Source: Candidatus Eremiobacteria bacterium (GTDB taxonomy: Bacteria > Vulcanimicrobiota > Vulcanimicrobiia > Vulcanimicrobiales > Vulcanimicrobiaceae). From it: a DNA stretch of 64,000 nt. Shown in pieces: positions 38,473-57,206 of the stretch (positions are counted from its first letter, which is position 1; each line of letters opens with the position of its first letter). The translations under genes and the position numbers were made by a program. The stretch is taken from assembly GCA_963737065.1 (NCBI GenBank), contig CAVTRC010000001.1:352001-416000 (forward strand). The letters are read 5' to 3'. The notes below the pieces were generated by a model. The model was not told the origin of the DNA and did not search any database. It worked only from the letters and a program-made list of their open reading frames with translations.

Positions 38473-41400
38473 CTAATGCGCTGCGCTCATCGCCGCGCGT
38501 AGCTTTGCCTCGGCTCTTGCGGCGTCGGAGCTCAGTTTGTCGAACACCTCGTACTCCGCGGCGGTCGGACGGACGTATCCTGTGTCGACTTCCGCGTTGA
38601 GGTACGCGATGAAACTGCGTAAGCGCGATTCGTACAGCAGCGCGCCTTCATCGGACTGCTTATGCACGAGATCGACCACATTGCCGATCGCATCATCCAG
38701 TTGCTTCGCAGCCGCGCTACCCGCGAGCAACCTTCGCGCGCGCCGCAACCGCCTCGTTCACAGTGCGATCCAGCGCGTCTTGCAATGCGTGGATCTTCAA
38801 GCCGAGATCGCGACGTGCCGCGAGATCAGCCGCCGTTGCGGTACTGCGCGGATCGAGCGTCAGCACGAGCGGCTGCGACACCGTCGCACCACCATACGAA
38901 AGCGTCACCGTGTAGTTCCCCGGCACGATCTGCGCTCCGAGCAGCGAATCATCGAGCCCACCGCCGGAACCCGACGGTTCGAATCCGGTAATCTCGGTCG
39001 AATCCGGATACCGAAGATCCCACTGGAACGTATTCATGCCCGGCGCAATACCGGTGAGCCGTTCGTAGGCATGCTGACGATCTTCCGTCGGATGATAACG
39101 CTCGCTCGGCGCTTCGGGCTCACCGCGTTGCCGCATGTGAAGATCGAACGTGCGCACGACGTTGCCGGCACTATCTTTGAACGTCAACGACGCCGGCGTG
39201 CTACCGCTGTACGACCGCGGCACGTAAAAGATCACCGCTGCGCCGAACAGCGGATTCTCACCGTTGCCCGCCGCATTCGGTCCGCCGCCGAACATCGGTG
39301 CACCATACGCATGCGTCAACCACGCGCGCTGCGGTTGATAGAGAACTGCCCCATTCGCATTCGACGGAGACGCCTTCGCGAGTTGCTCGAGCAACGTCAG
39401 GTTATCGAGCACCCACATCGAGCGGCCATGCGTTGCGATCACAACCTTGCCTTCACGGCTGTTGATCGCGACATCGCGCACCTGAACGTTCGGCAGGTTG
39501 AGCGTCAGCGGTTGCCAGTGATTCGCACCATCGAAGCTCACGAAGATCGTGCTCTTCGTTGTCAGGAAGAACAGGTTCGGCGCGTTCGGATCCTGCCGCA
39601 CCGTGTACAAATACTGATCGGTAGGCACACCATCGGCGATTGCCGTCCATGTCTTGCCGAAATCCGTCGTCTTGTAGATGTACGGATGAAAATCGTCGTA
39701 CTGATAACGCGACGCGGTGAGGTATGCCGTGCCTTTCTCGGTGTGCGACGCTTCGATCGACGTAATTTCCGCCCACTGCGGCAATGCCGGCGGCGTGATC
39801 GCCGTCCACGTCGCACCATGATCGGTCGTCACGTGCACCAGACCGTCCGCCGATCCGGCCCACATCTCGTTGCCGTCAAGCGGTGAAACCGAAAGCGCGG
39901 AGACATATGGGAAAATCTCGGCACTCGACGCATCGACATCGATCGGACCGCCGCTCGCCGCTTCGCTTTTCGGATCGTTGCGCGTCAGGTCCGGACTGAT
40001 CTTCTTCCATGTTTGCCCGTAATCGGTGCTGCTGAGCACGTATTGCGCGCCGACCAGCAGTTCTTTCGGATTCGTCGGCGAGAAAATAATGGGATGCGTC
40101 CACGCGAGCCGGTACTCGAGCTCGCCGGAACTTGCGCCTTCGCGGTAGAGCGGGTACGGACTGACGCTATTGTACTCGTCAGTCGTATTATCGTGGCGCA
40201 TCATGATGCTGTAGTAGCCGCTGCCGTAGTCGATATTGACGTTGCCCGGCTGCGGTGCGACGTACGTGCTCTCGCCCAGCGCCGTGCGCCGCCAATCGCT
40301 CGTCAAAACAACGCCGCCTGAAGCCGCGCTCGGCCCTTCCCATGAACCTTCGTCTTGTTGCGCGCCGTAAATGTTAAACGGAAACGCTTCGTCGAGCGCG
40401 ACGTGATAAAACTGCGCCGTGAGTTGATTGTGCTCGGTGCTCCACGTCTTGCCGCGGTCGGTCGACACCGTGCCGCCGCCGTCGTTGCCCTCCAGAATGA
40501 TGTTCGAATTCTTCGGATCGATCCACACGATGTGATTGTCGCCATGCGGCGGACGTAACAAGCTGAAATGATAGCCGCCGTCATGCGAAACGAAAAACCG
40601 TGCGTTCGGCACGTAAATCGTGTTCGGATCACTCGGATCGGTATAGACGGCCGTGTAATAGAACGCCCGCTGACGCATCTCCATGCTGTCGTTCACGCGC
40701 TTCCAGCGAGCGCCGCCGTCGTCCGACCGAAAGACGCCGCCATCCTTTGCTTGCACGATCGCATACACGATCTTCGGATTGCTCTGCGCGATGCTCACGC
40801 CGATACGTCCCAGCACGCCGATCGCAAACCCGGGATTCGTCGAGATTTTCGTCCAGTGCGCGCCGCCGTCGGTCGTTTTATAGAGACCGCTACGGGGACC
40901 GCCTGAACTCAGTCCCCACGCTCGGCGATAGGCCTGCCACATCGAAGCATAGAGCGTGTTCGGATGTGAATTATCCATCACGAGATCGATCGCGCCGGTC
41001 GCGTCGTCAATGTAGAGAATCTTGCGCCAATGCGCTCCACCGTCCGTCGACTTGAAAATCCCGCGGTCGGGATTATTCGCGTATACATGACCCATTGAGG
41101 CCGCATACACCACGTTGGCATCGTGCGGGTCGACCACGATCTTTGCGATCGTATGCGTGTCCTTTAGCCCCGAGTAGTGCCACGTTTTGCCGGCGTTCGT
41201 CGTCTTGTACACGCCGTCGCCGGTGATAAACGTGTTGCGTATATCAGCCTCGCCGGTGCCTGCGTAGATGACGTTCGGATTCGACGGGGCAACGGCAAGC
41301 GCGCCGATGCTATTCGAAGCATTCAGCTGGCCGTCGGTAATGTTCGTCCACGTGAGGCCATAGTTCGTCGAACGCCATACGCCGCCGTCAACCCCGCCGA

Positions 41401-41593
41401 AGTAAAACGTAAACGGATTTCCGGGTACGGCATCAACGGCGACCGCGCGCCCGCCGATGCCGGGCCCGACGTTACGCCAATGCAGCGCTCTTAAAACGGT
41501 TTCCGTACTGGGCGCAGCAGTTTGCGCCCCGGTTGGTATAGCAGCAAGGAACAGCAATGCAGCGATCCCCGCAAATCGCTTCGTTCTCCACAT
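38473..41593 (-). CDS. VPS10/BNR-repeat beta-propeller, glycosyl hydrolase-like (+1 frameshift near 38720)
   Basis: Signal peptide, WRNVGP..GGR, many S/T-x-D-x-G-x-x-W repeats, GAQQDEGS; C-terminus continues in ORF 38473-38748. Confidence 0.88.
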
Positions 41594-41614
41594 GCTGCGC
41601 ACTTTGACGAGCGA

Positions 41615-41636
41615 CGGGTAGTGCCTCCACTACCCG
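41615..41636. terminator. Hairpin between alr and the VPS10 gene
   Basis: CGGGTAGTG-cctc-CACTACCCG; no clear U tract. Confidence 0.4.
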
Positions 41637-41665
41637 CCTACAAACAAGAATTGACTTACATCAAT

Positions 41666-42679
41666 TCAGCGCGCAGATTGCGGGAGCGCGCAGTGATGCG
41701 CCAGGCCGAGCGTTGTGACGATTTGATGCGGTAACAGGTTTGCGGCAGCCGCGAGTTCATCGAGGTCGTCGTCGGCTCCGAGAACTTGCGTCTCGTCGCC
41801 GGTGGTCGCATCGTCGAGGACGCTGTACTGCATTCCCACCGAAAGAATGTTGCGATACGGCCGCGTAACGCGCGGGAAACCGTCGCTATAGCCGCAGCGC
41901 ACCACGCTAACGCGAGACCCGGCTGGAAGCGTTGCGGTGCCATACCCCGCACCGAGGCTGCCGTCGGAACCGATCCGATCGACAACCGGCGCACAAACGT
42001 CGATCGCGCACGTCAGCGGCGTCGTCGCATCAGGCTTCCCCGCGCCGAAGAGCCCGACACCAACACGTATGGTCTTGTCGCAGCTACGGCTGCGACTCGC
42101 CGGAAACGTGCTCTCGACGTCTTCTCCGACGACGTGAACGCCGCGGTTTCGAAATGCTGCGACGAATCGAACGAACTTCTCGCGATCGACCGCCTCGGTA
42201 TCGTCGTTGGTAAGATGCGTCCACAACTCCACACGCATATGAGAATCGGCGAGGAGCGTCGCGTATCCGTGCGCGTCTTCGATGTCGATTGCCGACCACC
42301 CGGCCGCCAAACGTAGCCCGAGCCGAACGGTTATTTCTGAGGCATCCGAGCGCATCGCGAGCGCGGACAACGAATCCAGACGAGCAACGTTGACGATGCC
42401 GCGAAGGTCCGCCGCGCGGGTCGCGTCTTGCGGGCCCCCATCGTACAACGTCGCAGCCGGCGCCTGCGTCATCGCGCGTACCCGCTTGAGCTCATGGACG
42501 TCCGAAACGACGAATCCGTCGGCGACGCCGTCGAGTTCGCGAACGACGCGCTCGAGGCCAAAGCCGTAACCATTCGCTTTCACGACGGCTCGCACCGCGG
42601 CGCCCGTTCGCTGCTTCCACGCGCAGACGTTGTCGCGAAGCGCCATGCCGCGAAGGTTTATCGTCGGCGCGTCGTTCAT
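41666..42679 (-). CDS. alr: Alanine racemase family protein (divergent)
   Basis: AVVKANGYG (PLP Lys), RVGVGLFG, GYG, GYSDG; ATGA overlap with the upstream gene. Confidence 0.8.
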   Translation of the reverse strand: MNDAPTINLRGMALRDNVCAWKQRTGAAVRAVVKANGYGFGLERVVRELDGVADGFVVSDVHELKRVRAMTQAPAATLYDGGPQDATRAADLRGIVNVARLDSLSALAMRSDASEITVRLGLRLAAGWSAIDIEDAHGYATLLADSHMRVELWTHLTNDDTEAVDREKFVRFVAAFRNRGVHVVGEDVESTFPASRSRSCDKTIRVGVGLFGAGKPDATTPLTCAIDVCAPVVDRIGSDGSLGAGYGTATLPAGSRVSVVRCGYSDGFPRVTRPYRNILSVGMQYSVLDDATTGDETQVLGADDDLDELAAAANLLPHQIVTTLGLAHHCALPQSAR

Positions 42680-44179
42680 CGGCCGAGCGAATCCGCCGGC
42701 CACGCGTAGTTTCCGAGCGCATCCCATTGATACGGCTCCGTACCGTCCCACGCGAAAAAGCACTCACCGAGTGCGCCGATACGTTTGCTCGCAGCGAGCG
42801 ACGAGGTAATTTCTTGCGCTGGCGGCGCGCCATTGCGACCGACAGCGCTCGTCTGCCCACCGATGCTGATCGGAATCATTCGCCCGGCATAGCGCAGCAA
42901 CGTCTCGTACGATGCCTGCACGATCTGCTCGACATCTTCCGGTGTCGTGGGCGTTCGGCGCATCATCCGCCAATACGTCATCGGCTGCAACGCCGTGCTG
43001 AAGCGCGCAATCTGCGCGTACGGATACGTGCGATCGTCGAGACGTTCGAGGTACGCGTCTTCAACCGTCGGCATTATGAGATATGCTGGACCCATTGCAT
43101 TGCGAACGAATTCAACGTAGTGCCACAGCGCGCTCGGCCCTTGCGGCGCGCCGCCCATAAAATCGTCGCCGCGCTCCACGTCGAGCGCGAGGCCGTCCAG
43201 CGGCGTTCCGTTCGCCGTTCGATAGTACGCACCGCGCACGGCCGTTTGCACATCCTCGAAACTCTCGTCGCGCGGCACCGCCCATGCTATCGTCTTGATG
43301 CCGTGCGCCGCAAGTCCGTCGATTATGGCATCGATCCGTCGGCTTTGCCTCCGGGGTGATTTCCCAATACGCGCCGTATGACGTGCGCAACTCGACGTAG
43401 TGCAGCCCCGCGCGTACCGCTTGCGCGACGATCGCTCCGGGATCGAGATGCTTGAAATAGATCGCGTCAACCGGATTCGACGTGAAGTACAGCCACATGC
43501 CTTTGCCGCGCACGTTGTCGATCGGCGTCGCGGGCGCCGTCTGCGGTGTCGTGACGGCAAGGCGCGCCGGTTCGTGTCCTGTGCGCTCGACGACGTACTG
43601 GTACGAGCGGCCGGGTTCGGCATTCGTGTCGCGAAACGTCGAGCTTGGCCCCGCGATGAGCGCAAGGAGACGTCGCGCACCGCCCTCTTCCGCACGAAAG
43701 ATCCGCACCTCGCCCGCTTCGCGCGGAAACCAACCGATTTGCACGAGATGCGGACCCAGCGCTTTCGCGACGGCGCGCGGCGAACGCCAAGACCGCGTAT
43801 TCGTGCGCACCGTTACGCTGCCGATGCGCGGCTCGTTTGCGACAACGGTCATCGTCAGGGCGCCATCCACAGTCGTCGAGAGAATCGCCGATGGTTGGCC
43901 ATACGCGAGACGCGTCTGCCATTGCACGTAACCGTCGCTCGAGCGATACGTGAAGTCGCTGTTTGCGATAATTCGCGTCGGTTTGTTCTGCGCATCGAAG
44001 AATTTCGTCACGACGAGCCACCGTGCGTTGCCGTCGGGATCGAAGCCGAGCGCGCGCGCATCGACCGCCATGCGCACGGCCGGATTTCCGAAATAGACCG
44101 GAACGTTCGGCGTCGGCGCCGGTGAGGGCAGCGGCGTCATCTGCGTCAGGACGGCTGCCAGCATGAACGCGTAGTGCAT
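42676..44179 (-). CDS. Secreted protein with FN3-like and glycoside hydrolase-like TIM barrel domains (+1 frameshift near 43336)
   Basis: N-terminal half in ORF 43112-44227 (FRDT..PG..YQY, GKGMW); C-terminal half in 42676-43695 (LALDVE, LQPMTYW, FFAW). Confidence 0.65.
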
Positions 44180-44241
44180 CGTTGCGCGCTCTCTTCGTTG
44201 GCAGGCGCGCGAACTCTGTTGAACCAACCTTCGCGTTTGGT

Positions 44242-45708
44242 ATGGGTCGACGTCTAGCCGCGCTCGCGATTTGCATCATGCTTGTGGCCGCAATGCCGCG
44301 CCCCGTCCCGGGCGGATCGCCGTGGACGCGTGCGCAAATCGCAGCATTAGGGCACACGATCGACGCGCTGCTGAAAAACGGCGCACTGCGCGGCGCGCAG
44401 ATCGGACTGATCGCGGCCGATACGGTGCGCGGCACGCTGCTTTACTCACGCAACGCCGACGAAGAATTCATGCCGGCGTCCAATTTCAAACTTCTTGTCG
44501 GTTCCGCTGCGCTGCAGATTCTCGGGCCGAACTTTTCATATGTTACGTCGGTTCTCGGCGACCGCGCACCATCCGACGGCGTCATCGCCGGGAATTTGTA
44601 CTTGCACGGCGGAGGCGACGCGCTTCTCAGCGCCGCGGACCTCAACACAGCGGCCGCGTCGCTCGCCGCCGCGGGCATCAAGCGCATCGAGGGTGATCTC
44701 GTCGCGGACGCGACGCATGACGACGCGCAGCGCTATGGATATGGTTGGTCGTGGGACGATCTGCCGTATTACTATGCGCCGGTCATCACGGCGCTCGAAC
44801 TCGAAGACGGCGTCGTGCATATCATCATGCTGCCCGGAACATCGGTCGGCGCGCCGGTGGTGCTGCGAATCGAACCGCAGACCGGCGCGTTCACCATCGT
44901 GAACCGGCTGCAAACGGGGGCGCCCGGTTCACAAGACACGTCGGAGATCGTACGCTCGTGGGATGCACCGAAGCAAATCGAACTGACCGGCACGTATCCT
45001 CTAAACGCGAAACCCTCGGGCGATATTGAACCTAGCGTTCCGGATCCGGAATCCTACGCGGCGGATGTTTTCGCGCGCGCGCTTGCGGCGCACGGGGTCA
45101 CCGTTACGGGAACGGTTCGCGACGGCAAAACGCCGCCGCACGCAACGGTACTGTGGTCGCATGATTCGCTTTCAATGCCGAAGCTGATGCAGCAGTTTTG
45201 GTATCCAAGCGACAACCTCATGGGTGAATTATTGCTCAAAGAGCTCGGCGTGGCGCTGCGCGGCGAGCCGGGAACCGACGAAAACGGCAGCATCGCCGAA
45301 CAGCGTTATCTTCGCTCGATAGGCATCGATCCGCGAACGGTCACGATCGGCGACGGCTCGGGCCTTTCCAGTTACGATCGCATCACGCCGCGAGATCTCT
45401 TTACGATCTTGCAAACCGATTGGAACGGCCCGTATCGCGACATCGTCGTTGATGCGCTTCCGATCGCCGGCGTGCGCGGGTCGCTGCGCCGCCAATTTCT
45501 CAAGACGCCGGCGCAGCGTAAGGTGTTCGCGAAAACCGGCAGCATCAGTCACGTGCGCACGATCTCCGGCTTCATTCAAACGAAGACACACGGCGTCGTG
45601 ACGTTCTCGTTCCTCGTGAACCAGTGGATGGGCGCGGATCAGCCGCGCGGCGTCGCCGCGCTTGCGCGCGTGCGCGGCGCGGTGCTCTCCGCGATTGCGG
45701 ATCGGTAA
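44242..45708 (+). CDS. dacB: D-alanyl-D-alanine carboxypeptidase/endopeptidase (PBP4, S13)
   Basis: PASNFK, SDN, DGSGLS, AKTGS, GWSWDD. Confidence 0.93.
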   Translation: MGRRLAALAICIMLVAAMPRPVPGGSPWTRAQIAALGHTIDALLKNGALRGAQIGLIAADTVRGTLLYSRNADEEFMPASNFKLLVGSAALQILGPNFSYVTSVLGDRAPSDGVIAGNLYLHGGGDALLSAADLNTAAASLAAAGIKRIEGDLVADATHDDAQRYGYGWSWDDLPYYYAPVITALELEDGVVHIIMLPGTSVGAPVVLRIEPQTGAFTIVNRLQTGAPGSQDTSEIVRSWDAPKQIELTGTYPLNAKPSGDIEPSVPDPESYAADVFARALAAHGVTVTGTVRDGKTPPHATVLWSHDSLSMPKLMQQFWYPSDNLMGELLLKELGVALRGEPGTDENGSIAEQRYLRSIGIDPRTVTIGDGSGLSSYDRITPRDLFTILQTDWNGPYRDIVVDALPIAGVRGSLRRQFLKTPAQRKVFAKTGSISHVRTISGFIQTKTHGVVTFSFLVNQWMGADQPRGVAALARVRGAVLSAIADR

Positions 45709-45784
45709 TCGCGATGACGGGTGAAGGCGATTGTTGCCGTGGCTGGAAGGAAAATCGTTTCGGCCATTTTCCGGAGGGATTTGG

Positions 45785-48643
45785 ATGCTTCAACTATCGA
45801 GCCGATGGCAATCGCTCGTCGCGATCGTGCTCTTTGTGATTGGATTTTCCACGCTCCCAATCGGCGCCGTTGCGCAGCAACTCACGACGGGAACCATCAG
45901 CGGCGTCGTGACCGATGCGCAAACCGGCGCGCCGCTCGCGGGCGTGAAGGTTACCGCCACTTCACCAAGCGGCGTGAAGACCACCGTGACCGACAGCCGG
46001 GGTTTTTACACGCTGCAACAGCTCAGCGTCGATACGTACACCGTCTCATTCGAACTGAGTGGATATTCGTCCGCGAGCGTGCCCGGCATCAATGCACCGC
46101 AAGCAGTCGTCGAACGCGTGAACCAAACCCTCACGAAAGAGATGCGGGTTATCGCAAACGTCAGCGCTCGTTCATCAGCGAGCTTGGTGCAGCCCAATGT
46201 CACGACCGATCAATATACGGTGAGCGGGGAGCACCTTGACGCCGTCTCCGGCGGGAACCAGCTGCAGAAAACGCTCTACCAGTACGTCGATACGATTCCC
46301 GGCATCACGGTCGGCGGCTTCAGCACGCAGCCGCGTATTCACGGCGGATCGGTCACCGACGAACAGTACGAGTTCGACGGCATCCCGATTCGCGATCGCA
46401 TCACCGGATTTTTCACCACGAATTTGTCGAATCTCGGCGTCGCGAACGTCGAGGTTTCAACGGGCGGGCTCGGCTCGGAAACCTCCGATGCCGGACTCGG
46501 CATCATTAATACGGTGATGAAGACCGGTACGTATCCGGCGTTCGGGACCATTGCGTACGGCGCCGACGTTACCGACCGGCTCCTAAACTTTATGTTCGAG
46601 TACGGCGGTGCGACGCCGAACCGTCGCTGGTCGTGGTATGTCGGCGCGCAGAAAACCGGATCGCAGAACGAGTACGCGTCCGGCGCAAGTTATCCGGCCG
46701 TCGTGGTCGAGGGTTTCAACGGCCCCGGTCCCGTCTATACCACCGACATCGTCGGCAACTTTCACTACCGTCCGAATAACAAGGACGACTTCCAATTCTT
46801 GATCCAGAACGGCCTCGGCGATTTCATCTTTGGTTACGGATTCCAGCGAAACAGTCCCGGTCAGCCGCTTCCGTTGACCGCCGTTCCGTGTCCCGGATAC
46901 ACGGTGAGTTCGACGACGCCGACGGGAGCGGCCGGAGGCACAGCGCCGAACGGCCAAACGTGTCCGGCCGGTCTGTATTTTGGTACCGCGAGTGGTGCGA
47001 CGCTCGGCATGGGCGGCAATATCTGGCATCACTACTCCGGCATCGGTAAGCTGCAGTGGAATCACATCATCAACGATCACTCGTCGTTCTCACTGCGCCT
47101 CGCCGAAAATTTCAACCAATATATCTTCGACCAACCGATCGTCGACGCGAACATTCCAGCGATCGAGAACAGTCCCGATTTTCACCCCGGCGACTGCCCG
47201 CCATATCCCTACGCACCAAAGACGCCGATCCCCGTCGTCGGCGGCCAACTTTGTGCCGAGCAAGATCTCTTCTTCGAGACCGGCTACTTAGGCGATCGCC
47301 GCTCGAACATGTGGCTCGGATCGCTCGATTACACAAACCAGATCAGCGACAACGCGACGATCCGCGCGGGCGTGAGCGAAGAGTACGACAATAATCTCGA
47401 CAATTCGTACTACACGTTCTACATGAATCCCGACGGCTCGTGGCCCGGCGTGAACTCGCTCTCATCGTATCCCGACCATATTCCGGCGTTTTACGTGAAC
47501 GGCTCGCTGCGCGCGCGCAAATGGCTCCTCGAGCCCGGCGTGAGGTGGCAGCGCATGTATTACGATTATCCCGCGAGCACGATCGGCGGCGTGTCGTATC
47601 CGGCTGGTCCGTACTCCGTTGGCGTCTGGAATCCGACGTTCGCCGCAACCTACACGATGAACAACCACAACGTCATTCGCGGATCGTGGACCGATTCGAC
47701 GTCATTCGTCGGTACGGCGTACATCTGGCGCGAGGGTTCGAGTGAATACAATCCGGGTGGCATATTCAGCGCGAATCCGACGATCTTCCACAGCGCCGAT
47801 CTCATGTGGGAGCACGAGTTCGATCCCGACACGTCGCTGCGAATCGGACCGTATTGGAACAAAGCGACGAATGTGTTCTACACCTATCGTCCGGTGCTCA
47901 GCGTCAACCCGGCAACGGGCGCCATTACGTACGGTCCGGCACGCCCGACAAACGGTGGTCTGCGTCAATCGTTCGGAGCGGAGCTTGGCCTCAATCACGT
48001 GGATCGGCACCGGTACGGCGTCTCGTACTGGCTCTCCGGAACGTACGATAACTTCTGGACGAACATCACATCGTCGTTGACCGGCTCGTACGGCGGAGCC
48101 GGACTACCGTCGTTTCTCCCGGTCGTTCGCAGTCCGTACAATCCATTGATCAGCGCGTCGCTCGTCGCCGACGTGCACGCGGATCGCTGGCACTTCATGC
48201 CGACCGTGTACTACCAGGGACCATCGCCGTATCAGACGGGCGAATGCGCAGCGTCGCAAAAATGGATCAATCTGACCGGTTATCCGTACTACTCGACCTG
48301 CTTGAGCGCGAGCAGCAACCTCGTGCAGCCGGTTCGGATGTTGCCTGAACTCTGGTCCACGCCGTACTGGTGGTCGAACGCAACGCTGGCCTACGACCTG
48401 GGGCCGACGCGCGCCACTCGCATCGGCGTACAGGTGACGAATCTGTTCAACAACGTCAACCCGAGCAATCCGGCCGTGCCGTGCTACTCGAACGTGCAAG
48501 CGAACACGCCTGCACTCGGTGCCGGGTGTTCGCCGTACTATCCGCTTGCCGGCCAGCAACCGCTGCCGAGCAGCGGCTACATCTACCAAAACACGTCGGT
48601 AACGCCGCGTCAGATCATGTTGTTCGTCCAACAACGGTTCTAA
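45785..48643 (+). CDS. TonB-dependent receptor-like outer membrane protein
   Basis: GGAGG RBS, signal peptide, carboxypeptidase-regulatory N-domain, plug (IPGI...IHGG...DGIPI), beta-barrel, terminal Phe. Confidence 0.85.
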   Translation: MLQLSSRWQSLVAIVLFVIGFSTLPIGAVAQQLTTGTISGVVTDAQTGAPLAGVKVTATSPSGVKTTVTDSRGFYTLQQLSVDTYTVSFELSGYSSASVPGINAPQAVVERVNQTLTKEMRVIANVSARSSASLVQPNVTTDQYTVSGEHLDAVSGGNQLQKTLYQYVDTIPGITVGGFSTQPRIHGGSVTDEQYEFDGIPIRDRITGFFTTNLSNLGVANVEVSTGGLGSETSDAGLGIINTVMKTGTYPAFGTIAYGADVTDRLLNFMFEYGGATPNRRWSWYVGAQKTGSQNEYASGASYPAVVVEGFNGPGPVYTTDIVGNFHYRPNNKDDFQFLIQNGLGDFIFGYGFQRNSPGQPLPLTAVPCPGYTVSSTTPTGAAGGTAPNGQTCPAGLYFGTASGATLGMGGNIWHHYSGIGKLQWNHIINDHSSFSLRLAENFNQYIFDQPIVDANIPAIENSPDFHPGDCPPYPYAPKTPIPVVGGQLCAEQDLFFETGYLGDRRSNMWLGSLDYTNQISDNATIRAGVSEEYDNNLDNSYYTFYMNPDGSWPGVNSLSSYPDHIPAFYVNGSLRARKWLLEPGVRWQRMYYDYPASTIGGVSYPAGPYSVGVWNPTFAATYTMNNHNVIRGSWTDSTSFVGTAYIWREGSSEYNPGGIFSANPTIFHSADLMWEHEFDPDTSLRIGPYWNKATNVFYTYRPVLSVNPATGAITYGPARPTNGGLRQSFGAELGLNHVDRHRYGVSYWLSGTYDNFWTNITSSLTGSYGGAGLPSFLPVVRSPYNPLISASLVADVHADRWHFMPTVYYQGPSPYQTGECAASQKWINLTGYPYYSTCLSASSNLVQPVRMLPELWSTPYWWSNATLAYDLGPTRATRIGVQVTNLFNNVNPSNPAVPCYSNVQANTPALGAGCSPYYPLAGQQPLPSSGYIYQNTSVTPRQIMLFVQQRF

Positions 48644-49239
48644 GACAAGGACGCTCGCCGGATTCGCTCGCGCAGCTCCTCGCCCACGTCGATCGCTTCA
48701 CGTGGTTCGAGGAGCTGTGGTGACGGACGCAGACGCGCGATATCCCACCGTTGGTCTTCCGCGGTGCCGAAATAGCCGTCGCACATCGCTGCTTCCGCGT
48801 GCGACATAACGTGGTCCGCGTCCACCGGCACGTCGTAGAATGCGGCTAGTCGTCCGCCGACGGTGCACAACGCATCGATCAGTGCTTCGGTGAGCGGATA
48901 CGCACCGAAATCTTGCGGCGTCGCGTCCTGCATCGCCATGATCGAAATCCCGAGCGCGTACGAATTGCGGCTACGCGTGTGCGCAGCATACGGTCGCTCC
49001 GGCGAGCCATAGATTTCGCGCATGTTCTCGCGCACATCGTGCGTATTGACGACCACGATGCCCACTCCCGGTTCGATCGCAACGCAAAAGTGATACGCCG
49101 GAAAAACCTTCTCGTAATCGTATGCCGACCAGTGCGTGTAAATGCGCTCGATACGGCCGGGGACGTCGGGACGCCAGGCATCGAGCGACAAGTGCGGGTA
49201 CGCGTCGATGCGCGTCTCGATGCCGCTCAGATCTGCCAT
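48640..49239 (-). CDS. N-acetylmuramoyl-L-alanine amidase (Amidase_2), no signal peptide
   Basis: IYTHWS, YHF, AHT..RNS..LGISI, VMSHAE. Confidence 0.78.
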   Translation of the reverse strand: MADLSGIETRIDAYPHLSLDAWRPDVPGRIERIYTHWSAYDYEKVFPAYHFCVAIEPGVGIVVVNTHDVRENMREIYGSPERPYAAHTRSRNSYALGISIMAMQDATPQDFGAYPLTEALIDALCTVGGRLAAFYDVPVDADHVMSHAEAAMCDGYFGTAEDQRWDIARLRPSPQLLEPREAIDVGEELRERIRRASLS

Positions 49240-50846
49240 TGCCAGGCGTTCCATTCATCGGCGATAAACGCCGCCGGTTCGTAGTGCTTGACGTCTGTAT
49301 TGAGCGCGTAATAGGTTTCGTGCCAGAAGGCGAATACGGCGGGATCGAGTTCGCGAATTCGCGCCGCCTCCCGCTGATAGAGCGCCTTGCGCTTCGCCTG
49401 ATCGAACGTTCTCGCGGCGGCGCTGCTCGTCTCGTCAACGATTCTGTCGCTGAGCCAACTCGTGTTCGCGCCGTTCGGCGGGATGAAATGCGAGTTCCAT
49501 GAACCCGAGTCGTCGGGGTCGGCACCGTTGTACGACTGCGACCACTCGAGGTCGTACGTCCCACCGTACAGCGGCCCGTTTTGCGCGAACAACACGTTCG
49601 CCGCCGCATTATGAATAGAAAGCGCAATGCCGAGCGGTTGCAGCATCGATTGCATGAGCACTTCTGAGCGTTCGTTCTGCTGATTGTCGGTCGTCGCCGT
49701 AATCGTCAATCGCAATGCAAGAGCGCCTTTGTGGAGTACGCCGTCCGAGCCCATGCGCCAGCCGTCCGACGCGAGCAGCGTGCGCGCCGACGCGGGATCG
49801 TGACGATACGGCGGAAGCGACGGCGCGGCCCACGACTGAGGAAACACGTCGGAGACTGCAAGCTCGCCATAGCCCCGGTATACCGTCTGCAGAATGCGGT
49901 TCCAGTCAACGCTCATTGCAATCGCGTGCCGCACGTTCACGTCGGCGAGCTGCGGCTTGCGTATGTTCATGCCGAGGTGCTGCCACGACGCGATCAACCG
50001 ATGCTCGACGCGAATGCCCGAGATGCCGGAGAGCGCGGCGATGGAATTCTTATTGACGTCGGGATAGACGTCGATTTCGTGCGAGCGCAGTTCGTCAAGC
50101 ATCGTATCGGGATTCGGGATGATCTTGTAGTGGATCTCGGTGAGCCCGGGCGCGCCGCGAAAATAGCGCCGATTCGCGGTGAAGACCAATTCGTTGCCGC
50201 GATCCCATCGCTTTAGGACGAACGGGCCGCTTGAAATCGGCATGCTATTGAACGACGCATGATTGAGGTCGGGCAGCTTCGCAAGAAGGTGTGCCGGAAG
50301 CGGCGGATATGCATCGCCGCCCATGGTCAGAATCTCCATTCCCGCGACCGTCGGCCGTTTCAGCCGAATGACAATGGTATACGGATCGGGCGCCGACGCC
50401 GACGCAATCTCCGTCCAGCCATACGCCGTTTTCGTGTTGTTGCGCGGATTCATCACCGCGTGATACGTGAAGAGCCAGTCGCCCGCCGTCAGCGGCGCAC
50501 CGTCCGACCAGACCGCGCCGTGGCGCAAGTGGACGGTGATCGTCTTGCCGTCGGCGCTGATGCCGCCGTTTTGCGGCGTCGGCACCGTGGTCGCGAGATC
50601 GGGAAACAGATTTCCGTTCGCATCGGTGCGAAGAATGAACGCGAAGAGCAGACAGTCGACCTGCGCGGTTGCGATCGTGTGGCCGAACATCAGGTTGAGA
50701 TTATCGGGCTCTTCCGCGCTGCCGATGCGCAGCACGCCGGGAACCGTCCAACTATTCCTTCCCGCCGCCGTCGGCGTGCCGGCTTTCGAGCACGCCGCAA
50801 GCGCCGCAATCACCAGCAACGACAGAATAACGCAACGGTATCGCAC
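49227..50846 (-). CDS. Peptide ABC transporter substrate-binding lipoprotein (SBP family 5)
   Basis: Lipobox LAAC, PDLA, WSDGAPLT, SGPF, VRHAIAMSVD. Confidence 0.92.
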   Translation of the reverse strand: MRYRCVILSLLVIAALAACSKAGTPTAAGRNSWTVPGVLRIGSAEEPDNLNLMFGHTIATAQVDCLLFAFILRTDANGNLFPDLATTVPTPQNGGISADGKTITVHLRHGAVWSDGAPLTAGDWLFTYHAVMNPRNNTKTAYGWTEIASASAPDPYTIVIRLKRPTVAGMEILTMGGDAYPPLPAHLLAKLPDLNHASFNSMPISSGPFVLKRWDRGNELVFTANRRYFRGAPGLTEIHYKIIPNPDTMLDELRSHEIDVYPDVNKNSIAALSGISGIRVEHRLIASWQHLGMNIRKPQLADVNVRHAIAMSVDWNRILQTVYRGYGELAVSDVFPQSWAAPSLPPYRHDPASARTLLASDGWRMGSDGVLHKGALALRLTITATTDNQQNERSEVLMQSMLQPLGIALSIHNAAANVLFAQNGPLYGGTYDLEWSQSYNGADPDDSGSWNSHFIPPNGANTSWLSDRIVDETSSAAARTFDQAKRKALYQREAARIRELDPAVFAFWHETYYALNTDVKHYEPAAFIADEWNAWQWQI

Positions 50847-50855
50847 GAGATGCTG

Positions 50856-51764
50856 TTACTTCCACCCATCGACGATCGTCTTCGCCATGTTTGCCATTAG
50901 CAGTTCGCCGGCGTTATCGGGCGTCCAGCTGCGATCGCGGTTGTTGTACGTGAAGGCCGCCATGACGATCGGTCCTTGCGGTGCATAAATGATTGCGACA
51001 TCGTTGCGCACCGCATCGAGCGCTCCCGTCTTATTCGCGACGGTCAGGCGGCCGATGTACCGCGGAATTCCGTCGCGGTCCGATTGATTTTTCAGCATAG
51101 CGAGCGCTTTCGCGCAGAGCGCTTGCTGCGTCGGCGTCGGCGGAGCGGTGTCACCGGGCGCGTTCAAATTGCACTCCGCAAAGCGCTGCATCAGTTGAAC
51201 GATCTCGCGCGCCGTTGTTTTTCCGAGGCCGAACTTCGGCTGATCGCTCGGCACATCACCTGTCGGCGGCTTGAAGACTTTCTTGTAGAGCCATGTGCTG
51301 TTCAGGCCGAGCCACTTCAACCGGGCATCGATTCGGGTGAGACCGAGATGATCGATCGCCAAGTTCGTCGCCGTGTTGTCGCTCTGTACGATCATCATCG
51401 TGAGCGCGTCCTTGAACGTCAGCACCAGCGGCGTATCGAAGAGCGTGAGCACGCCCGATCCCTCGACTTGGTTCTCCGGCGTGAGCGTCAGACGATCGTT
51501 CCAATGCGCCTCGCCCGCTTCGATTGCTTTGAGCGCTTCGAAGAGAATCGCAAGTTTGATGGTCGACGCCGTCGGCACCGGTGTGTCGGCATCAATACCA
51601 ACTGTTCGGCCCGTCTTTAGATCGACCGCATAAAGTGCCACGTTTCCAGCGTAGCTTGCCGCCAGCGCACGCAGCTGTCCTTCGATGCTGTCGGCGGCGC
51701 GGGATATTGCCGGGTGTGCTGCAGCAAACGCGACCAAAAGAAATCCAAAGAAACGTCGTATCAT
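50856..51764 (-). CDS. Serine hydrolase, class A beta-lactamase-like
   Basis: ASTIK, SDN, KTG, signal peptide; alternative start at 51773. Confidence 0.88.
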   Translation of the reverse strand: MIRRFFGFLLVAFAAAHPAISRAADSIEGQLRALAASYAGNVALYAVDLKTGRTVGIDADTPVPTASTIKLAILFEALKAIEAGEAHWNDRLTLTPENQVEGSGVLTLFDTPLVLTFKDALTMMIVQSDNTATNLAIDHLGLTRIDARLKWLGLNSTWLYKKVFKPPTGDVPSDQPKFGLGKTTAREIVQLMQRFAECNLNAPGDTAPPTPTQQALCAKALAMLKNQSDRDGIPRYIGRLTVANKTGALDAVRNDVAIIYAPQGPIVMAAFTYNNRDRSWTPDNAGELLMANMAKTIVDGWK

Positions 51765-51771
51765 TGTCGAC

Positions 51772-53842
51772 ATGTTGCAAACGATCGTTGCATCGCTTCT
51801 CCTTCTCGCTGCCGCGCCGGCCGCGGCCTCCCGCTTTTCGCTCGAGCAAATTCTCTCGTATCCGTTTCCGATGTCGCTGGTTCCTAGCGGCGACGGACGC
51901 ACGATCGCCTACCAGATCGATCAGCGGGGAGCCCGCAGCGTTTGGATCGCGCGGGCGCCGGATTACCGTCCGCAGCGCATCGCGAATTACGCGAACGACG
52001 ACGGACAAGCGGTGAGTTCACTGCAACTTTCGCGCGACGGAACGCGCCTGGTCTACACGCATGGAAATACCCAAAATCCGTCGCTCGACGTACGTCAGCC
52101 GCAACCGCATGTCGTCTCCGTTGATACGACGACCGGTACGCAAGTCGATCTCGGCGAAGGCTACGCGTCCGCCGTCTCTGCCGACGGCACGCGCGTGGCG
52201 TTTCTGCGCGACGCCGTTGTCTGGAGCGCTCCGGCGACAGGCAGCGCACCGGCTGCGCGCCTGTTTTATGACGCAGGTCGCGATCGCGACGTGCAATGGT
52301 CGCCGAACGGCGACGCGCTCGCGTTTGTCTCGGAACGCGGCGATCACGCCTTCATCGGCATTTACCGCAGCAACGCTCGGCCTTTGCAGTTTCTCGCTCC
52401 GTCGACCGGCAACGACACCGAACCGCGGTGGTCACCCGACGGCGGCAGCATTGTCTTCGCGCGTACGCCCGGCGCGGGCGGAGCCGTTGCGTCGCCGCTC
52501 GCAATGCCCGTTGTGCCGTGGTCGATCTGGATCGCGCGCGTTTCGGACGGCGCTGCGCATCGCGTCTGGTCGAGTGGAGATTCGTCGCGCGCATCGTTTC
52601 CGACGCAAGGCGGCGACGTCGATCTCACCTGGCTTGGCAATGACGCGATCGCCTTTTTAAGCGAAACGGATGGGTGGCCGCATATTTACGTCGTCGGCGC
52701 GCCGGGCGGCACCGCGCGGCGTCTGACATCGGGCGCGTACGCAGTGATCAGCATGGCGGCCTCACGCGACGGACATTCGCTTGAGTATGTGGCGAATACC
52801 GGCGCGCTCGCCGGCGATATCGATCGCTGGCATCTCTTTCGCGTCGATGCGCGGAGCGGACGCGTGAGCGCGATCACGCGGGGAACCGGTTCGCAATGGT
52901 GGCCGCTGCCGCTCGATGGCGGAGAGATCGCGTACGCGACCACGACAGCGCAGATGCCGCCGCTCGTCGCGGTCGCAAACGCCGACGGTACCCGCGAACG
53001 GCTCGTCGATGCGGCGCTGATACCGAGCGACTTCCCCGCGTCGTCGCTCGTGACACCAAATGACGTCACGTACCACGCGTCCGATGGAAGGCTGATTCAC
53101 GCGCAACTTTTCGCACGCCGTAGCATACGGCGTCGTCCGGCGGTCGTCTTCGTACACGGCGGACCGATGCGCCAGATGTTGCTCACATGGAGTCCGATGA
53201 GCTACTACGCGAACAGCTACGCAGTCGATCAATATCTCGTTAACCGCGGCTTCGCGGTGCTCTCCGTGAACTACCGGACGGGAACGGACTACGGCCACGA
53301 TTTCCACTATGCGGTGCGCGCCGGATGGACCGGCGCGAGCGAGTATCAGGACGTGCTCGCCGGCGCGCGATGGCTGCAGCAGCAACCGTCGATCGATCCG
53401 AACCGCATCGGCATCTGGGGCGGTTCGTGGGGCGGATATCTGACGGCGCTTGCACTCGCTCGGAACTCCGACGTCTTCAAGGCCGGCGTGGACTACAGCG
53501 GCGTGCACGACTTGATGCACGACGCGATCGCATATTTTCATGCGTACGGTGAAGGCGCCGACAACATCGACCTGCGTCCATGGCTCAAACTTGCGTGGAA
53601 CTCGTCACCGGAAGGCGCGCTGGCGACGTGGCGTTCACCGGTATTGCTCATTCAAGGCGATCAAGATCCCGATGTGGAGTTCCATCAAACGGTCGATCTC
53701 GGCAGCGCGGCTACAAGCGCGACACATTCCACACGACGTCATCGTCCTGCCCGACGAGGCACACACGTTCTTACGTTGGAGTTCCTGGCTGCGCGCGGAC
53801 AGCGCGGCAGTGAACTTCCTAAGGGAAAATCTCGACCCATGA
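51772..53842 (+). CDS. S9 family peptidase with beta-propeller (+1 frameshift near 53701)
   Basis: PD40-like WSP repeats, HGGP, GGSWGG, GDQDPDV; catalytic His (DEAH) lies in frame 53540-53842. Confidence 0.88.
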
Positions 53843-53857
53843 GCCCGGCGAACCGCG

Positions 53858-54710
53858 CTATATATCGCGCCGTTGAAATGAGATCGTCCCGGCGATAAGG
53901 ACGACGGCGAACCAAAACAGACACCACACGAAGAACGCGATCGGCGGCGGTGCAGCGGGAACGAGCGGATTCATTGTGTTCGATGCGGCCTCTGTCGCTC
54001 GCACGATTGCCGGCTGCATCGAAAACGACGCCGCGCGCCATAAACCGTCGCTCGGAATGATCAGGCTGATCGCGGTCGTCGCACTGAGCATGCTCGAGTT
54101 GTGAAAGTACGTCGCGAAGCTTCCTACGATACCGGCGATCCACGCGATACCGAAAAGCACCACGGTTACGAAGCCGGCCGCGATCGCGGAGAGCCGCACG
54201 CTAATCGCCATCGTCAACGTAAGCAAAACGAGACTCTGCGCAACGAGCAACACCAGCGTCTGCAGCGGATAAGGTGGCGAGATAACCCGTCGTCCAACGA
54301 ACCGCGGCGAATTCCAGCGCTCCAATCACGAACGCATATCCGGCGAGCAACACCGCATTCCCGAGCCACTTTCCGATAAGGATCTCCGCGCGGCGAATTG
54401 GACGCGGGACGATCGCAAGCAGCGTGCCGTTTTCAATCTCGGCTCCCGTGGAGAGCGCGCCGAGGAACGCCGCGGCGAGCGCGAGCACGAAGCTGAACAT
54501 AAACGCCATCATGATCTCGAGAACGCTGGAGGCCTCCAGCACATCGTGATGCGCGATGCGGTTGCCGCTCCCCGTATGCATTGTCGCGAGCGCATGGAAG
54601 CCAAACGCCGTGAGTGCAACGAGAACGACGGTAGCGATGGCCGCGGTCAGCACCAAGCGCCGGCGCGATGCCTCACGAAGCGTGAGTGACGCGATCAACA
54701 GCACGTTCAT
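53858..54710 (-). CDS. ABC-2 type permease (+1 frameshift near 54281)
   Basis: LTLREASRRR, EIENGTL...PIRR...GKW; C-terminal FQRRDI in the second frame. Confidence 0.85.
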
Positions 54711-55566
54711 GGCCGTTGTTGCTCCGTACGATTTCGAGAAACCGCTCTTCGAGTGTTTGGCGAACCGGTACGACGGCGACGATCTCCGCGCCGCGTTCGA
54801 CGTATTCGGCGACGATATGCGGAATCTGAGCGGTCGTCACGTCTTCGATCAATGCCACGGTTCCGTTGGCAAACGCGATACGCACCGCAGGCCGTCCGAG
54901 CAGAGCGTCCAGCGACCCAACGGAACGGATCGTCCCGTCCGTAATGATCGCGACGGAATCGCATACGGATTCGACTTCGGTTAGCAAGTGCGAGTTTAAA
55001 AAGACGGTCGTCCCGCGTGCTTTCAATTCAGCAACCAGCGTTCGCACTTCGGCACGTCCCAGCGGATCGAGCGCGGACGTCGGCTCGTCGAGAATCACTA
55101 ATTCGGGTGAGCCGAGCATCGCAACGGCAAGCCCGAGCCGCTGCTGCATTCCTTTAGAAAAGGCGCCGATCCGATCGTTTGATCGCGCAGACAATCCGAC
55201 GCGGTTCAACGCGTCGTCAATCTGCGGCGCGCGTTTGGAACGTTCGATACGAAGCACGGCCGCGTGCCATCCTAAAATCTCGCGCGCGGTCAGCCAGTCT
55301 TGATAACGAAAGAGCTCGGGCAGATATCCGATCCTGCGTCGCGCGTCGAGCGAACCCAGCGGTTTCTCGAGGATTGCACCGTCGCCCGATGACGGGCGCA
55401 CGAGGCCGAGGAGGATCTTCACCGCCGTCGTCTTCCCGGCGCCGTTTGGTCCGAGAAAGCCGAAAACCTCACCGCGCGCAACACGCACGGTGAGATTTTC
55501 AATGGCAGCGCGCTTTCCGTAGAACTTCGTGAGGTCGCGGGTTTCGATCGCGTATCGCTGCGTCAC
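54673..55566 (-). CDS. ABC transporter ATP-binding protein
   Basis: GPNGAGKTT, FSKGM, LDEPT, NSH. Confidence 0.95.
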   Translation of the reverse strand: MTQRYAIETRDLTKFYGKRAAIENLTVRVARGEVFGFLGPNGAGKTTAVKILLGLVRPSSGDGAILEKPLGSLDARRRIGYLPELFRYQDWLTAREILGWHAAVLRIERSKRAPQIDDALNRVGLSARSNDRIGAFSKGMQQRLGLAVAMLGSPELVILDEPTSALDPLGRAEVRTLVAELKARGTTVFLNSHLLTEVESVCDSVAIITDGTIRSVGSLDALLGRPAVRIAFANGTVALIEDVTTAQIPHIVAEYVERGAEIVAVVPVRQTLEERFLEIVRSNNGHERAVDRVTHAS

Positions 55567-56711
55567 GACGTCATTGAATTCGCGACCTTCGTCATTTCGT
55601 CTGCCGAGTAGCCGCCGATAACCCAATAAAACGTCCCGCCCGAGACCCACAGTACGATGCTTCCGACGCCGGTGTTGTCTCCGATCAGCAAACCGCGGGC
55701 GCCGTGAACGAGTACCGGTCGCGACGTCGACTTATCGATCGCAACCGGGATCGGCAGCGTCGACGCCGGATCGCGTATCGCACGGATCTGCGCCTTGACG
55801 TTCTGCGGAACGTTCGGCAACGAAAGGAGATACGACTCGATCGTATTGGCGCTCAACGACGTGGACCGAACGGCCGGAACCGGCCCCTGCGCGACGATGA
55901 TCGCATCGCGTGGGAACTCACGATCGCGCGGCGCATGTTTTCCGTGTCGTTGCTCCAGCCGCATGCCATACGATTGCACGACGAACGGTCCGAGTTCAGC
56001 GGTCAACGTCGCGCCGTCGAGGCCGGACGGCGGCGGCGGGAGCGTGAAGTGCTTGCGCGCGGCACTGGCGCGCGCTTTGCGCTCGTCGAACGTGAACCGC
56101 ACGACGTGAAGCGGCTCGATGCCGTATTCTACGGTGTGCGTAACACTGGCCGGCAGATACGCCGGACGCGAGAAGCTTTGATGCGCGAATTGACGCGCAG
56201 CGGCGAGTGACGAAAAGCGCTGCATTTTGCCGCGGTTGCTTTCGCGCACGGTTCCGAGTTCACTCAATTCAGGTGCGCTGTGTAGTTGTTCGAGATCCGC
56301 ATGCGTCACTGAAATGGGCGTCACTTCACGCGGTTGGAAGATCGTCAATACATTTTGCGCATAAGCGCGGAACGGTGCATACGAGAGGGCGAACGCAACA
56401 ATGAGCGCGGCTGCGATTGCGGAGAGCGGCCGCCAATCGCGCAGGCGCGCCGGCTTCGCTTCAGCCCGTAGGCCGACAGTGTGCGTACTGCGGCGTGACC
56501 GCGCGAGAATCGCTGCACGCGCCGACGTGGTATCTACCGGCTCTTCTGCAGTGCTGAGCGCGCGCGCCGCCGCGCGCGCGTTCGCACGCACCGCGTCGAG
56601 CGTTTGCCGGCAACGCAAGCATTGCACCAGATGCTCTTTCTCATAGGAAAGCAGCGCTTCAGGCTCATCGACGTAGCGCCGAAGAGCCGCATCATTCAAG
56701 TGACGAAACAT
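55563..56711 (-). CDS. Zn-finger (HxxxCxxC) membrane anti-sigma factor
   Basis: HLVQCLRC, single TM helix, extracytoplasmic domain; overlaps the sigma gene. Confidence 0.82.
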   Translation of the reverse strand: MFRHLNDAALRRYVDEPEALLSYEKEHLVQCLRCRQTLDAVRANARAAARALSTAEEPVDTTSARAAILARSRRSTHTVGLRAEAKPARLRDWRPLSAIAAALIVAFALSYAPFRAYAQNVLTIFQPREVTPISVTHADLEQLHSAPELSELGTVRESNRGKMQRFSSLAAARQFAHQSFSRPAYLPASVTHTVEYGIEPLHVVRFTFDERKARASAARKHFTLPPPPSGLDGATLTAELGPFVVQSYGMRLEQRHGKHAPRDREFPRDAIIVAQGPVPAVRSTSLSANTIESYLLSLPNVPQNVKAQIRAIRDPASTLPIPVAIDKSTSRPVLVHGARGLLIGDNTGVGSIVLWVSGGTFYWVIGGYSADEMTKVANSMTS

Positions 56712-57189: not shown

Positions 57190-57206
57190 GTGCATTCCGT
57201 CTGTAG

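Follow-up and report, generated by a model that had tools for sequence, protein, structure and literature searches.

A rearranged gene cluster around a TonB-type receptor in Vulcanimicrobiota as a candidate locus for peptidoglycan fragment uptake

The window examined here is a stretch of 64,000 nucleotides (G000:C1:352001-416000) from genome G000 of a soil bacterium, which is 3.08 Mb long, consists of two contigs and is 95% complete; its close relatives are labelled Vulcanimicrobiota, Candidatus Eremiobacteraeota or Baltobacteraceae. Between 41.6 and 53.9 kb of the window, four closely packed transcription units include the gene for a candidate TonB-type outer-membrane receptor together with genes for several enzymes and a solute-binding protein. 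An earlier reading of the sequence, called the original prediction below, had listed nine genes here and had proposed that they import and dismantle foreign cell-wall fragments. All nine were recovered at or near their predicted places from open reading frames (ORFs), Pfam and NCBIfam, and they are given below in order along the window, with bit scores against the named family models.

38717-41602, minus strand: VPS10/BNR protein (Sortilin-Vps10, 124.1 bits).
ORF 41666-42763, likely start M29 at 42679, minus strand: alanine-racemase-like (Alr-like) protein (Ala_racemase_N, 61.7 bits).
ORF 42676-44227, of which the part 42676-44179, minus strand: glycoside-hydrolase-like (GHL) protein, secreted, with two beta-sandwich domains and a TIM barrel in its predicted model.
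ORF from 44182, likely start M21, 44242-45708, plus strand: DacB, a PBP4-type S13 DD-carboxypeptidase/endopeptidase with a signal peptide.
ORF from 45731, likely start M19, 45785-48643, plus strand: receptor (CarboxypepD_reg, 55.5 bits; OMP_b-brl_3, 38.7 bits, cut-off 27) with a signal peptide.
48640-49254, minus strand: Amidase_2-like protein, with a divergent Amidase_2/PGRP fold and no signal peptide.
49227-50846, minus strand: family-5 solute-binding protein (SBP; SBP_bac_5, 252.9 bits) with the lipobox LAAC.
ORF 50856-51902, likely 50856-51773, minus strand: class-A-like hydrolase (Beta-lactamase2, 179.3 bits), with a signal peptide after M44/M47.
51685-53898, start 51685 or 51772, plus strand: S9 peptidase (Peptidase_S9, 108.2 bits; PD40, 55.8 bits), secreted, with beta-propeller repeats.

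The first unit, on the minus strand, runs from GHL to the Alr-like gene, the GHL stop and the Alr-like start overlapping as ATGA at 42676-42679. The original prediction described this pair as a racemase coupled to a secreted protein with FN3 and glycoside hydrolase (GH)-like parts; the coupling is confirmed and the GH-like barrel is seen in structure models, but no family model calls FN3. In the second unit, on the plus strand, DacB is followed by the receptor with 22 nt between the ORFs, as had been predicted. The third unit, again on the minus strand, runs from the class-A-like hydrolase through the SBP to the Amidase_2-like protein. The class-A-like stop and the SBP start are 9 nt apart, and the end of the SBP gene and the beginning of the amidase gene have 28 nt in common, in agreement with the earlier view that a beta-lactamase-fold hydrolase, an SBP and a signal-less Amidase_2 protein share one operon. 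The S9 peptidase forms the fourth unit, on the plus strand. The receptor and amidase genes are convergent and their stops share 4 nt. Signal peptides were read on DacB, the receptor, GHL, the class-A-like protein and the S9 peptidase, and a lipobox on the SBP; the amidase and the Alr-like protein have no signal peptide in their translations.

The evidence that carries our interpretation is the linkage of these families in relatives. Linkage counts were taken from tblastn tables, and the labels of the ORF caller sometimes fell on opposite-strand ORFs, as with 'S9' labels where the amidase lies. In a GHL-centred set of 80 loci from other species (from species-representative genomes, many of the loci on short contigs), the following genes were found within 9 kb of GHL:

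Receptor: 44 of 80 loci.
DacB: 39 of 80 loci.
SIS protein: 36 of 80 loci.
DppB-like permease: 35 of 80 loci.
Amidase: 23 of 80 loci.
LysA: 18 of 80 loci.
PMI: 14 of 80 loci.
Alr-like protein: 5 of 80 loci.
Orthologous SBP: 1 of 80 loci, in a congener.
Class-A-like hydrolase: 1 of 80 loci, the same congener locus as for the SBP.

An amidase-centred set of 21 loci, one of which is only 570 bases long, gave the receptor in 9 loci, DacB in 8, GHL in 5 and the Alr-like gene in 2, with the orthologous SBP, the class-A-like gene and the S9 peptidase in 4 each. Seven of the 21 have none of these genes, and six of these seven come from distant genera with tandem arrays of paralogous SBP5 genes. In an SBP-centred set, the layout is common to three congeners only (3/20 loci), and the other 17 loci belong to a paralogue group. 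We account for this apparent restriction to the genus by the fact that the SBPs of other genomes, with 41-63% identity, are that paralogue group, which has its own context; the amidase- and GHL-centred sets reversed the impression. The amidase and GHL genes lie at most 20 kb apart in 14 of the 33 sampled genomes having both, which represent nine genera (a hand count; the 33 include G036, flagged as unpublished).

Two arrangements were recognised in other genera. Arrangement A, the commonest order and complete in loci L069 and L076, has a divergent amidase gene and then LysA-DacB-SIS-receptor(s)-GHL-DppB-DppC-SBP5-MsrA-MsrB. Arrangement B, found in L033, L035 and L040, reads S9-classA-like-SIS-SBP5-amidase-receptor-DgcA-DgcN-SBP5'-C39_2. 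We conclude that the layout in the window's genus is derived and fuses pieces of A and B, with GHL turned round and attached to the Alr-like gene and with the B-type operon bordering on the receptor. The full nine-gene layout occurs in one genus only. Where the original prediction had named a lack of conserved linkage as a finding that would speak against it, linkage turned out to be conserved, in reshuffled orders.

These counts bear on one alternative, namely that members of large paralogous families have become neighbours by chance and form no functional unit. The families are indeed multi-copy in G000, with 18 SBP5 matches, 5 S13 matches, at least 7 VPS10 paralogues and 10 PF00593 matches over cut-off; the complete layout is confined to a single genus, and neither VPS10 nor the Alr-like gene shows good linkage. 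We nevertheless regard a chance gathering as improbable, since it is orthologues of DacB, SIS, receptor, GHL, permease and amidase that are linked, in several orders and orientations and across at least nine genera, and since coding regions overlap inside the operons.

The neighbours that relatives add to the locus are a SIS protein of the GlmS-C/NagB-II-like kind, DgcA/DgcN-like proteins, DppB/DppC with a further family-5 SBP, and LysA. These additions fit peptidoglycan. The SIS protein is closest to the isomerase half of GlmS and to NagB-II. As presented in the available part of PMC12363236, dgcN is the central gene in an irreversible route by which D-acidic amino acids are racemised. The neighbours in relatives score best to the two proteins of this DgcN/DgcA pathway, with 237.7 bits for the DgcA-like and 224.1 bits for the DgcN-like protein, and the equivalog cut-offs of 400 and 480 are not reached; in G000 the pair is found at C1:1433402-1435473, about 1 Mb from the window. 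The SBP paralogue group described above stands beside a DgcA-like gene in 17/17 loci, a C39_2-like gene in 17/17 and a DgcN-like gene in 16/17. Since these SBP paralogues travel with D-glutamate genes, we count them toward peptidoglycan, the DgcA/DgcN context applying to the paralogue alone. The DgcA-like protein, the DgcN-like protein, a family-5 SBP and a C39_2-like peptidase were also observed to form a unit across two families (L016-L032; in G000, L055:5402-9958, equal to C1:1433402-1437958).

DacB matches Peptidase_S13 with 329.6 bits and the PBP4 model TIGR00666 with 269.3 bits, over its cut-off of 107.8, and its translation has SNFK, SDN and KTG; the motifs SxxK, SxN and KTG define the PBP4/S13 family. 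The class-A-like hydrolase keeps STIK, SDN and KTG and has no Glu at the position of E166, where EpeLN of 4c75 faces KPPTGDV in the alignment. Its score against NF033103 (bla_class_A) is 76.9 bits, under the cut-off of 200. Among its matches are 4ewf (88 bits) and the cyanobacterial Tll2115 (2j7v, 55 bits), which we take to be a PBP-A with DD-peptidase character. On these motifs and matches, the protein is classified as a predicted secreted serine hydrolase of the class-A beta-lactamase fold, PBP-A-like and without Glu166. From the company of DacB with one AmpD-like and one class-A-like fold, a module for beta-lactam sensing or resistance of the AmpC-regulation kind might be suggested, in which PBP4/DacB is the trap and acts alongside an AmpD-like amidase and a beta-lactamase-fold enzyme; dacB and ampD are linked to beta-lactamase control in Pseudomonas. 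Such a module is very improbable, in view of the missing E166 and the low bla_class_A score, of a locus that contains no AmpR-type regulator, and of the receptor, GHL, SIS, permeases and SBPs, which it would leave unexplained.

The S9 peptidase is divergent to the class-A-like gene also in L033, L035 and L040, and in L036 it is a neighbour in the same orientation. The original prediction had both a secreted S9 peptidase and a VPS10 hydrolase flanking the locus; the former is present and is paired with the class-A-like gene in relatives, but VPS10 is not a conserved neighbour. In the window the class-A-like gene starts at 51773 or 51764 on the minus strand and the S9 gene at 51685 or 51772 on the plus strand. 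The two are divergent and their 5' coding ends touch or overlap, which leaves no space for ordinary promoters. An overlap of the aligned N-termini of the two proteins was observed in L033 as well.

GHL is read in two frames in G000, the piece 43337-44179 ending in ...WEITPEAKPT and the piece 42676-43335 beginning with IDAIIDGL. Against intact orthologues the two pieces abut without loss, which indicates one extra base near 43336. The gene is intact in three congeners, and the frameshift may be gene decay or an assembly error. A paralogous SBP at C1:1435533-1437070 reads in three frames in the same assembly, and this is a hint of indel errors in it. No Pfam or NCBIfam model matches the GHL fragments and no Pfam model matches an intact orthologue, the GH18 model PF00704 included. 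In the predicted structure, two beta-sandwiches stand ahead of a TIM barrel, and in the alignment and model an invariant D334-x-E336 follows the strand 331-334. The barrel is nearest to GH164, to the peptidoglycan hydrolase Cwp19 of Clostridioides difficile, and to GH18 chitinases and GH18 enzymes such as SleL. The leads from the Atlas are GH18 and DUF4015 clusters at 0.89, under the 0.9 line. A homologue search found 363 sequences; a Pfam domain occurs in none of the 120 listed, and those with names are hypothetical proteins of this phylum. In a phylum sample of 201 genomes, GHL is found in 40/113 genomes of the window's family, in 13/15 of one sister family and in 0/72 genomes of the other 19 families.

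Two further observations concern this family. In L034:12873-17196 (G145), the receptor and GHL are read in one open frame of 1465 codons, which could reflect a fusion, the loss of a stop or an error. GHL also occurs, with 47-56% identity to the query, on contigs labelled Acidoferrum, Acidiferrales, Verrucomicrobiia or Limnocylindrales (L111, L116, L121, L143 and L149); either these contigs are mis-binned or the gene has been transferred.

Another alternative is a locus for chitin oligomers or for some other amino-sugar glycoconjugate or glycopeptide, in which GHL would act as a GH18-like enzyme and the SIS protein as NagB-II. A TonB-dependent transporter (TBDT) together with NagB-II is the layout of the N-acetylglucosamine (GlcNAc) and chitooligosaccharide loci of Xanthomonas and Caulobacter, to judge from the available parts of PMC4173781 and PMC13046382. 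For our locus, a substrate of this kind has a small probability: it leaves the PBP4 equivalog, the Amidase_2 fold, the peptide permeases and SBPs, and the D-Glu and D-Ala genes unexplained, and GHL has no Pfam GH18 match.

The amidase scores 21 bits against Pfam PF01510, under the gathering cut-off of 26, and a scan of G000 with this model gave no match at E <= 0.001, hence no other Amidase_2 match. In precomputed data PF01510 is present in 35/120 listed homologues (a hand count). An alignment of 21 sequences shows H41, H55, H92 and H152 to be invariant, with D, E or N at position 159; by their pattern (His, His, Asp/Cys) H41, H152 and D159 are candidate zinc ligands. The AlphaFold model has a pLDDT of 79.7, and nearly all of its listed Foldseek matches are Amidase_2/PGRP proteins, with weak E-values. 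When the family profile was compared with solved sequences, only a chance-level match was returned (2ew2, E 0.36). Judged by the model, the protein has a predicted Amidase_2/PGRP fold and is a candidate cytoplasmic amidase for the bond between N-acetylmuramic acid (MurNAc) and L-Ala, in an AmpD-like role. In loci L048-L053, which come from more distant genera, an amidase homologue was observed 3-8 kb from tandem arrays of 2-4 paralogous SBP5 genes with 30-35% identity to the SBP of the window. The best solved relative of the latter is AppA of B. subtilis (1xoc, 149.8 bits), and it reaches no NCBIfam equivalog cut-off, the MppA type included.

For the receptor, residues 1-300 share 33-38% identity with paralogues in which PF00593 (TonB_dep_Rec) is matched, and its Atlas neighbours carry Plug and PF00593. 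Six TonB_C matches over cut-off are found in G000. The protein is accordingly named a candidate TonB-dependent-type outer-membrane receptor, with CarboxypepD_reg, a weak Plug and a beta-barrel. The Alr-like protein scores 52.7 bits against TIGR00492, below the cut-off of 168. Its motifs VVKANGYG and GYSDGFPR align to those of the alanine racemase 2odo, and the Lys of the first and the Tyr of the second are presumably the PLP-binding Lys and the catalytic Tyr. A canonical alr (332.6 bits) is found at G000:C1:1753900-1755012, and from the sequence we regard the gene in the window as a putative second, divergent paralogue with the alanine-racemase fold. The canonical alr adjoins another S13 DacB paralogue (G000:C1:1751422-1755012).

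On contig 2, genes for NagZ (GH3), AnmK, a BadF/BadG-type kinase, a MurQ-like etherase and a DUF4127 protein are clustered, with an ABC ATPase ahead of them (L054:7845-15345, equal to G000:C2:23845-31345). This cluster resembles the branch of peptidoglycan recycling that handles the sugars. A NagA-like gene in G000 scores just below its cut-off, and none of AmpG, LdcA and Mpl is found over cut-off in this genome. AnmK is present in 174/201 genomes of the phylum sample and in 109/113 of the family, and the amidase in 43/113; the Alr-like subfamily is found in 55/120 family genomes, mostly away from the module. The tallies for SBP5, amidase, GHL, AnmK and Alr-like include ten genomes flagged as unpublished (G014, G036, G192, G214, G216, G220, G229, G257, G266 and G274). 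When the amidase (43/113) and GHL (40/113) are compared with AnmK (109/113), the module is seen to be accessory, while the sugar-recycling core is near universal.

On the other hand, the same genes could have a housekeeping task, with the cell recycling or remodelling its own wall. DacB and GHL, along with the class-A-like penicillin-binding protein (PBP), would then be periplasmic autolysins, the amidase would be the AmpD equivalent, and the receptor would retrieve leaked fragments or be unrelated. It agrees with this that G000 has NagZ-AnmK-MurQ yet no other Amidase_2 match, and that the secreted enzymes have plain Sec-type signals with no sign of export past the periplasm. NixC, a TBDT of Xanthomonas campestris, is moreover proposed in the available part of PMC4173781 to import the cell's own peptidoglycan degradation products, as the first outer-membrane transporter for such products. 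We still consider own-wall housekeeping unlikely. The patchy distribution just given contrasts with that of AnmK, the re-use of stem peptides as in E. coli is not evident with AmpG, LdcA and Mpl under cut-off, and a receptor with an ABC importer and SBP in one operon is the layout of nutrient uptake. With a patchy module and no Mpl, LdcA or AmpG over cut-off, we lean towards scavenging over core recycling.

The observations to be explained are the gene content, folds, catalytic motifs, signal peptides and operon overlaps, together with a linkage that is conserved but rearranged. The single substrate that accounts for PBP4, the Amidase_2 fold, the GHL barrel, SIS, the peptide permeases and SBPs, and a second racemase is peptidoglycan. 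A receptor, periplasmic enzymes, an ABC importer and cytoplasmic enzymes are combined here as in a locus for nutrient uptake, which favours uptake and catabolism. We therefore read the locus, from its sequence, as a probable accessory, lineage-restricted cluster for the uptake and catabolism of peptidoglycan fragments, whether foreign or self-derived, and give this reading a probability of roughly 0.6.

In the scheme that we infer for this reading, which covers the substrates, the direction of flux and the cellular locations beyond the Sec signals, DacB, GHL, the class-A-like PBP without Glu166 and the S9 peptidase would trim the substrate in the envelope, and the TonB-type receptor would carry fragments over the outer membrane. 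Peptide-bearing products would be captured by the lipoprotein SBP for an ABC importer, which in most relatives would be the locus-encoded one (DppB, DppC, SBP) and in G000 would be encoded elsewhere, if at all. MurNAc would be parted from the stem peptide in the cytoplasm, by the signal-less Amidase_2-fold protein. The sugars would pass to NagZ/AnmK/MurQ of contig 2 and to the NagA-like enzyme, and in relatives also to the locus-encoded SIS deaminase/isomerase, while D-Ala would be taken by the Alr-like racemase and D-Glu by the DgcA/DgcN-like pair, whose genes lie elsewhere. By analogy with SusD for SusC, the lipoprotein SBP beside the receptor may be its substrate-capturing partner.

Several results weigh against this reading. 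For the receptor, the Plug match (PF07715) is 16.6 bits against a cut-off of 23.9 and is sub-threshold at the same position in 4/4 orthologues, PF00593 is not matched, and the family profile compared with solved sequences finds only the N-terminal CarboxypepD_reg-like domain, with no transporter among the matches listed. In the 80-locus set, 24 loci have no partner within 9 kb of GHL, 14 of these with full flanks, and in another GHL-centred set 9 of 15 loci are without any window family beside GHL. The operon of class-A-like gene, SBP and amidase stands next to the DacB-receptor unit in the window's genus only (1/80). The related genomes are not independent, and part of the linkage is inheritance. 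The SBP is not the MppA-like protein of the original prediction, being closest to AppA by sequence with no MppA-type equivalog reached. The Alr-like protein was tried as a core member and downgraded, with its 5/80 loci near GHL. In both genomes of genus g29 (L061:8501-9493 and L062:10791-11462), the unit DacB-SIS-(receptor)-GHL is immediately succeeded by a PilZ gene and by genes for GDP-sugar dehydratase/epimerase proteins, which does not fit peptidoglycan. G000 itself is without the locus-type SIS, its sole copy being a paralogue elsewhere with 55-57% identity where orthologues have 71-92%; it is also without a locus-type DppB orthologue (best match 40%), and its GHL is frameshifted. LysA in G000 appears to be the single lysA, stays with PMI where the module is absent and may be a bystander; as a salvage step for diaminopimelate it is retained only as a possibility.

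We conclude from the erosion in G000 that its copy of the locus is partly decayed, SIS and the locus-linked ABC permeases having been lost. The locus as a whole is a coherent, conserved system with two poorly known protein families, for which the evidence is wholly computational and the G000 copy eroded.

A literature search, mostly of listings and abstracts, turned up no account of a comparable locus from the lineage. As far as the available parts of the sources go, the closest described systems are the TBDT/NagB-II loci for GlcNAc in Xanthomonas and Caulobacter, with Xanthomonas nearest. The Xanthomonas campestris GlcNAc CUT system comprises the Nix TBDTs, NagA, NagB-II, NagK and NagP (PMC4173781), and GlcNAc TonB-receptor clusters are described for Caulobacter (PMC13046382). 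Compared with what those parts present, the likeness is a TonB-dependent transporter clustered with a SIS-type (NagB-II-like) enzyme and glycoside hydrolases. Unlike them, the present locus belongs to another phylum, has PBP4, an Amidase_2 fold, peptide ABC permeases and SBPs and an unnamed GH-like family, and contains no NagA, NagK, NagP or NagQ/NagR regulator. With the peptidoglycan recycling of E. coli it shares a cytoplasmic amidase of the Amidase_2 fold, the genomic NagZ/AnmK/MurQ and a family-5 SBP. It differs from the E. coli set in that AmpG, LdcA and Mpl are under cut-off and the SBP is not MppA-like by sequence; moreover, the genes are clustered with an outer-membrane receptor in a module that is accessory, not universal.

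The original prediction had also called the locus similar to a polysaccharide utilisation locus (PUL). Conserved linkage and peptidoglycan-fitting neighbours support its idea of import and dismantling, but no SusD-like partner was found and the term applies only loosely. As in a Bacteroidota SusC/SusD PUL, a receptor with an N-terminal CarboxypepD_reg is accompanied by secreted degradative enzymes. Unlike in such a PUL, no gene is SusD-like, every gene of the locus having been assigned, and no hybrid two-component or extracytoplasmic function (ECF)/anti-sigma regulator is tied to the locus. Inner-membrane passage would here proceed through a peptide-type ABC system.

Peptidoglycan, with its D-amino acids and amino sugars, is a large share of soil and peat organic nitrogen and turns over slowly. 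To our knowledge, few dedicated peptidoglycan uptake systems are known in diderm bacteria. A more specific version of our reading, which we put forward tentatively and hold to be possible but doubtful, is that Vulcanimicrobiota of the Baltobacteraceae type possess a dedicated system across both membranes with which they feed on peptidoglycan necromass, the wall material of dead neighbours. GHL may then represent an unnamed family of GH18/Cwp19-like glycosidases confined to this class, and PBP4 and the class-A-like PBP without Glu166 may have been recruited as digestive DD-peptidases. The other parts may be the TonB-type receptor, a peptide-type ABC importer with a lipoprotein family-5 SBP and a highly divergent cytoplasmic Amidase_2 protein. 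If our reading of the locus is right, the cluster would supply a gene marker, open to testing, for the scavenging of peptidoglycan in a soil phylum that is abundant and almost uncultured. The cell-wall hydrolases would gain a new family of glycosidase-like proteins and an amidase that is very divergent, and penicillin-binding-protein folds would serve digestion, not wall synthesis.

As for the surroundings of the locus, VPS10 was rejected as a cluster member: in the congener G003 (L013) it does not adjoin the cluster, and it lies within 9 kb of GHL in 1/80 loci. The genes of both flanks bear no relation to the cluster. The upstream flank carries an AraC regulator, an aspartyl protease/PDZ protein and a monooxygenase. 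The downstream flank carries an ABC-2 exporter together with an ECF sigma factor and, in addition, a peroxidase-family protein with two PF00141 stretches. The first of these occupies 53858-57195 of the window on the minus strand and consists of the ECF sigma factor, a 382-aa protein without assignment, an ABC ATPase and an ABC-2 permease; it was considered as a regulator or exporter of the locus and rejected, no conserved link having been seen. The permease looks split in two overlapping ORFs (54201-54710 and 53858-54325), possibly another assembly frameshift. Finally, in L061:6474-8495 (G051), a GDP-mannose 4,6-dehydratase of 673 residues has two match stretches with LAGLIDADG_3 between them, which looks like an intein.

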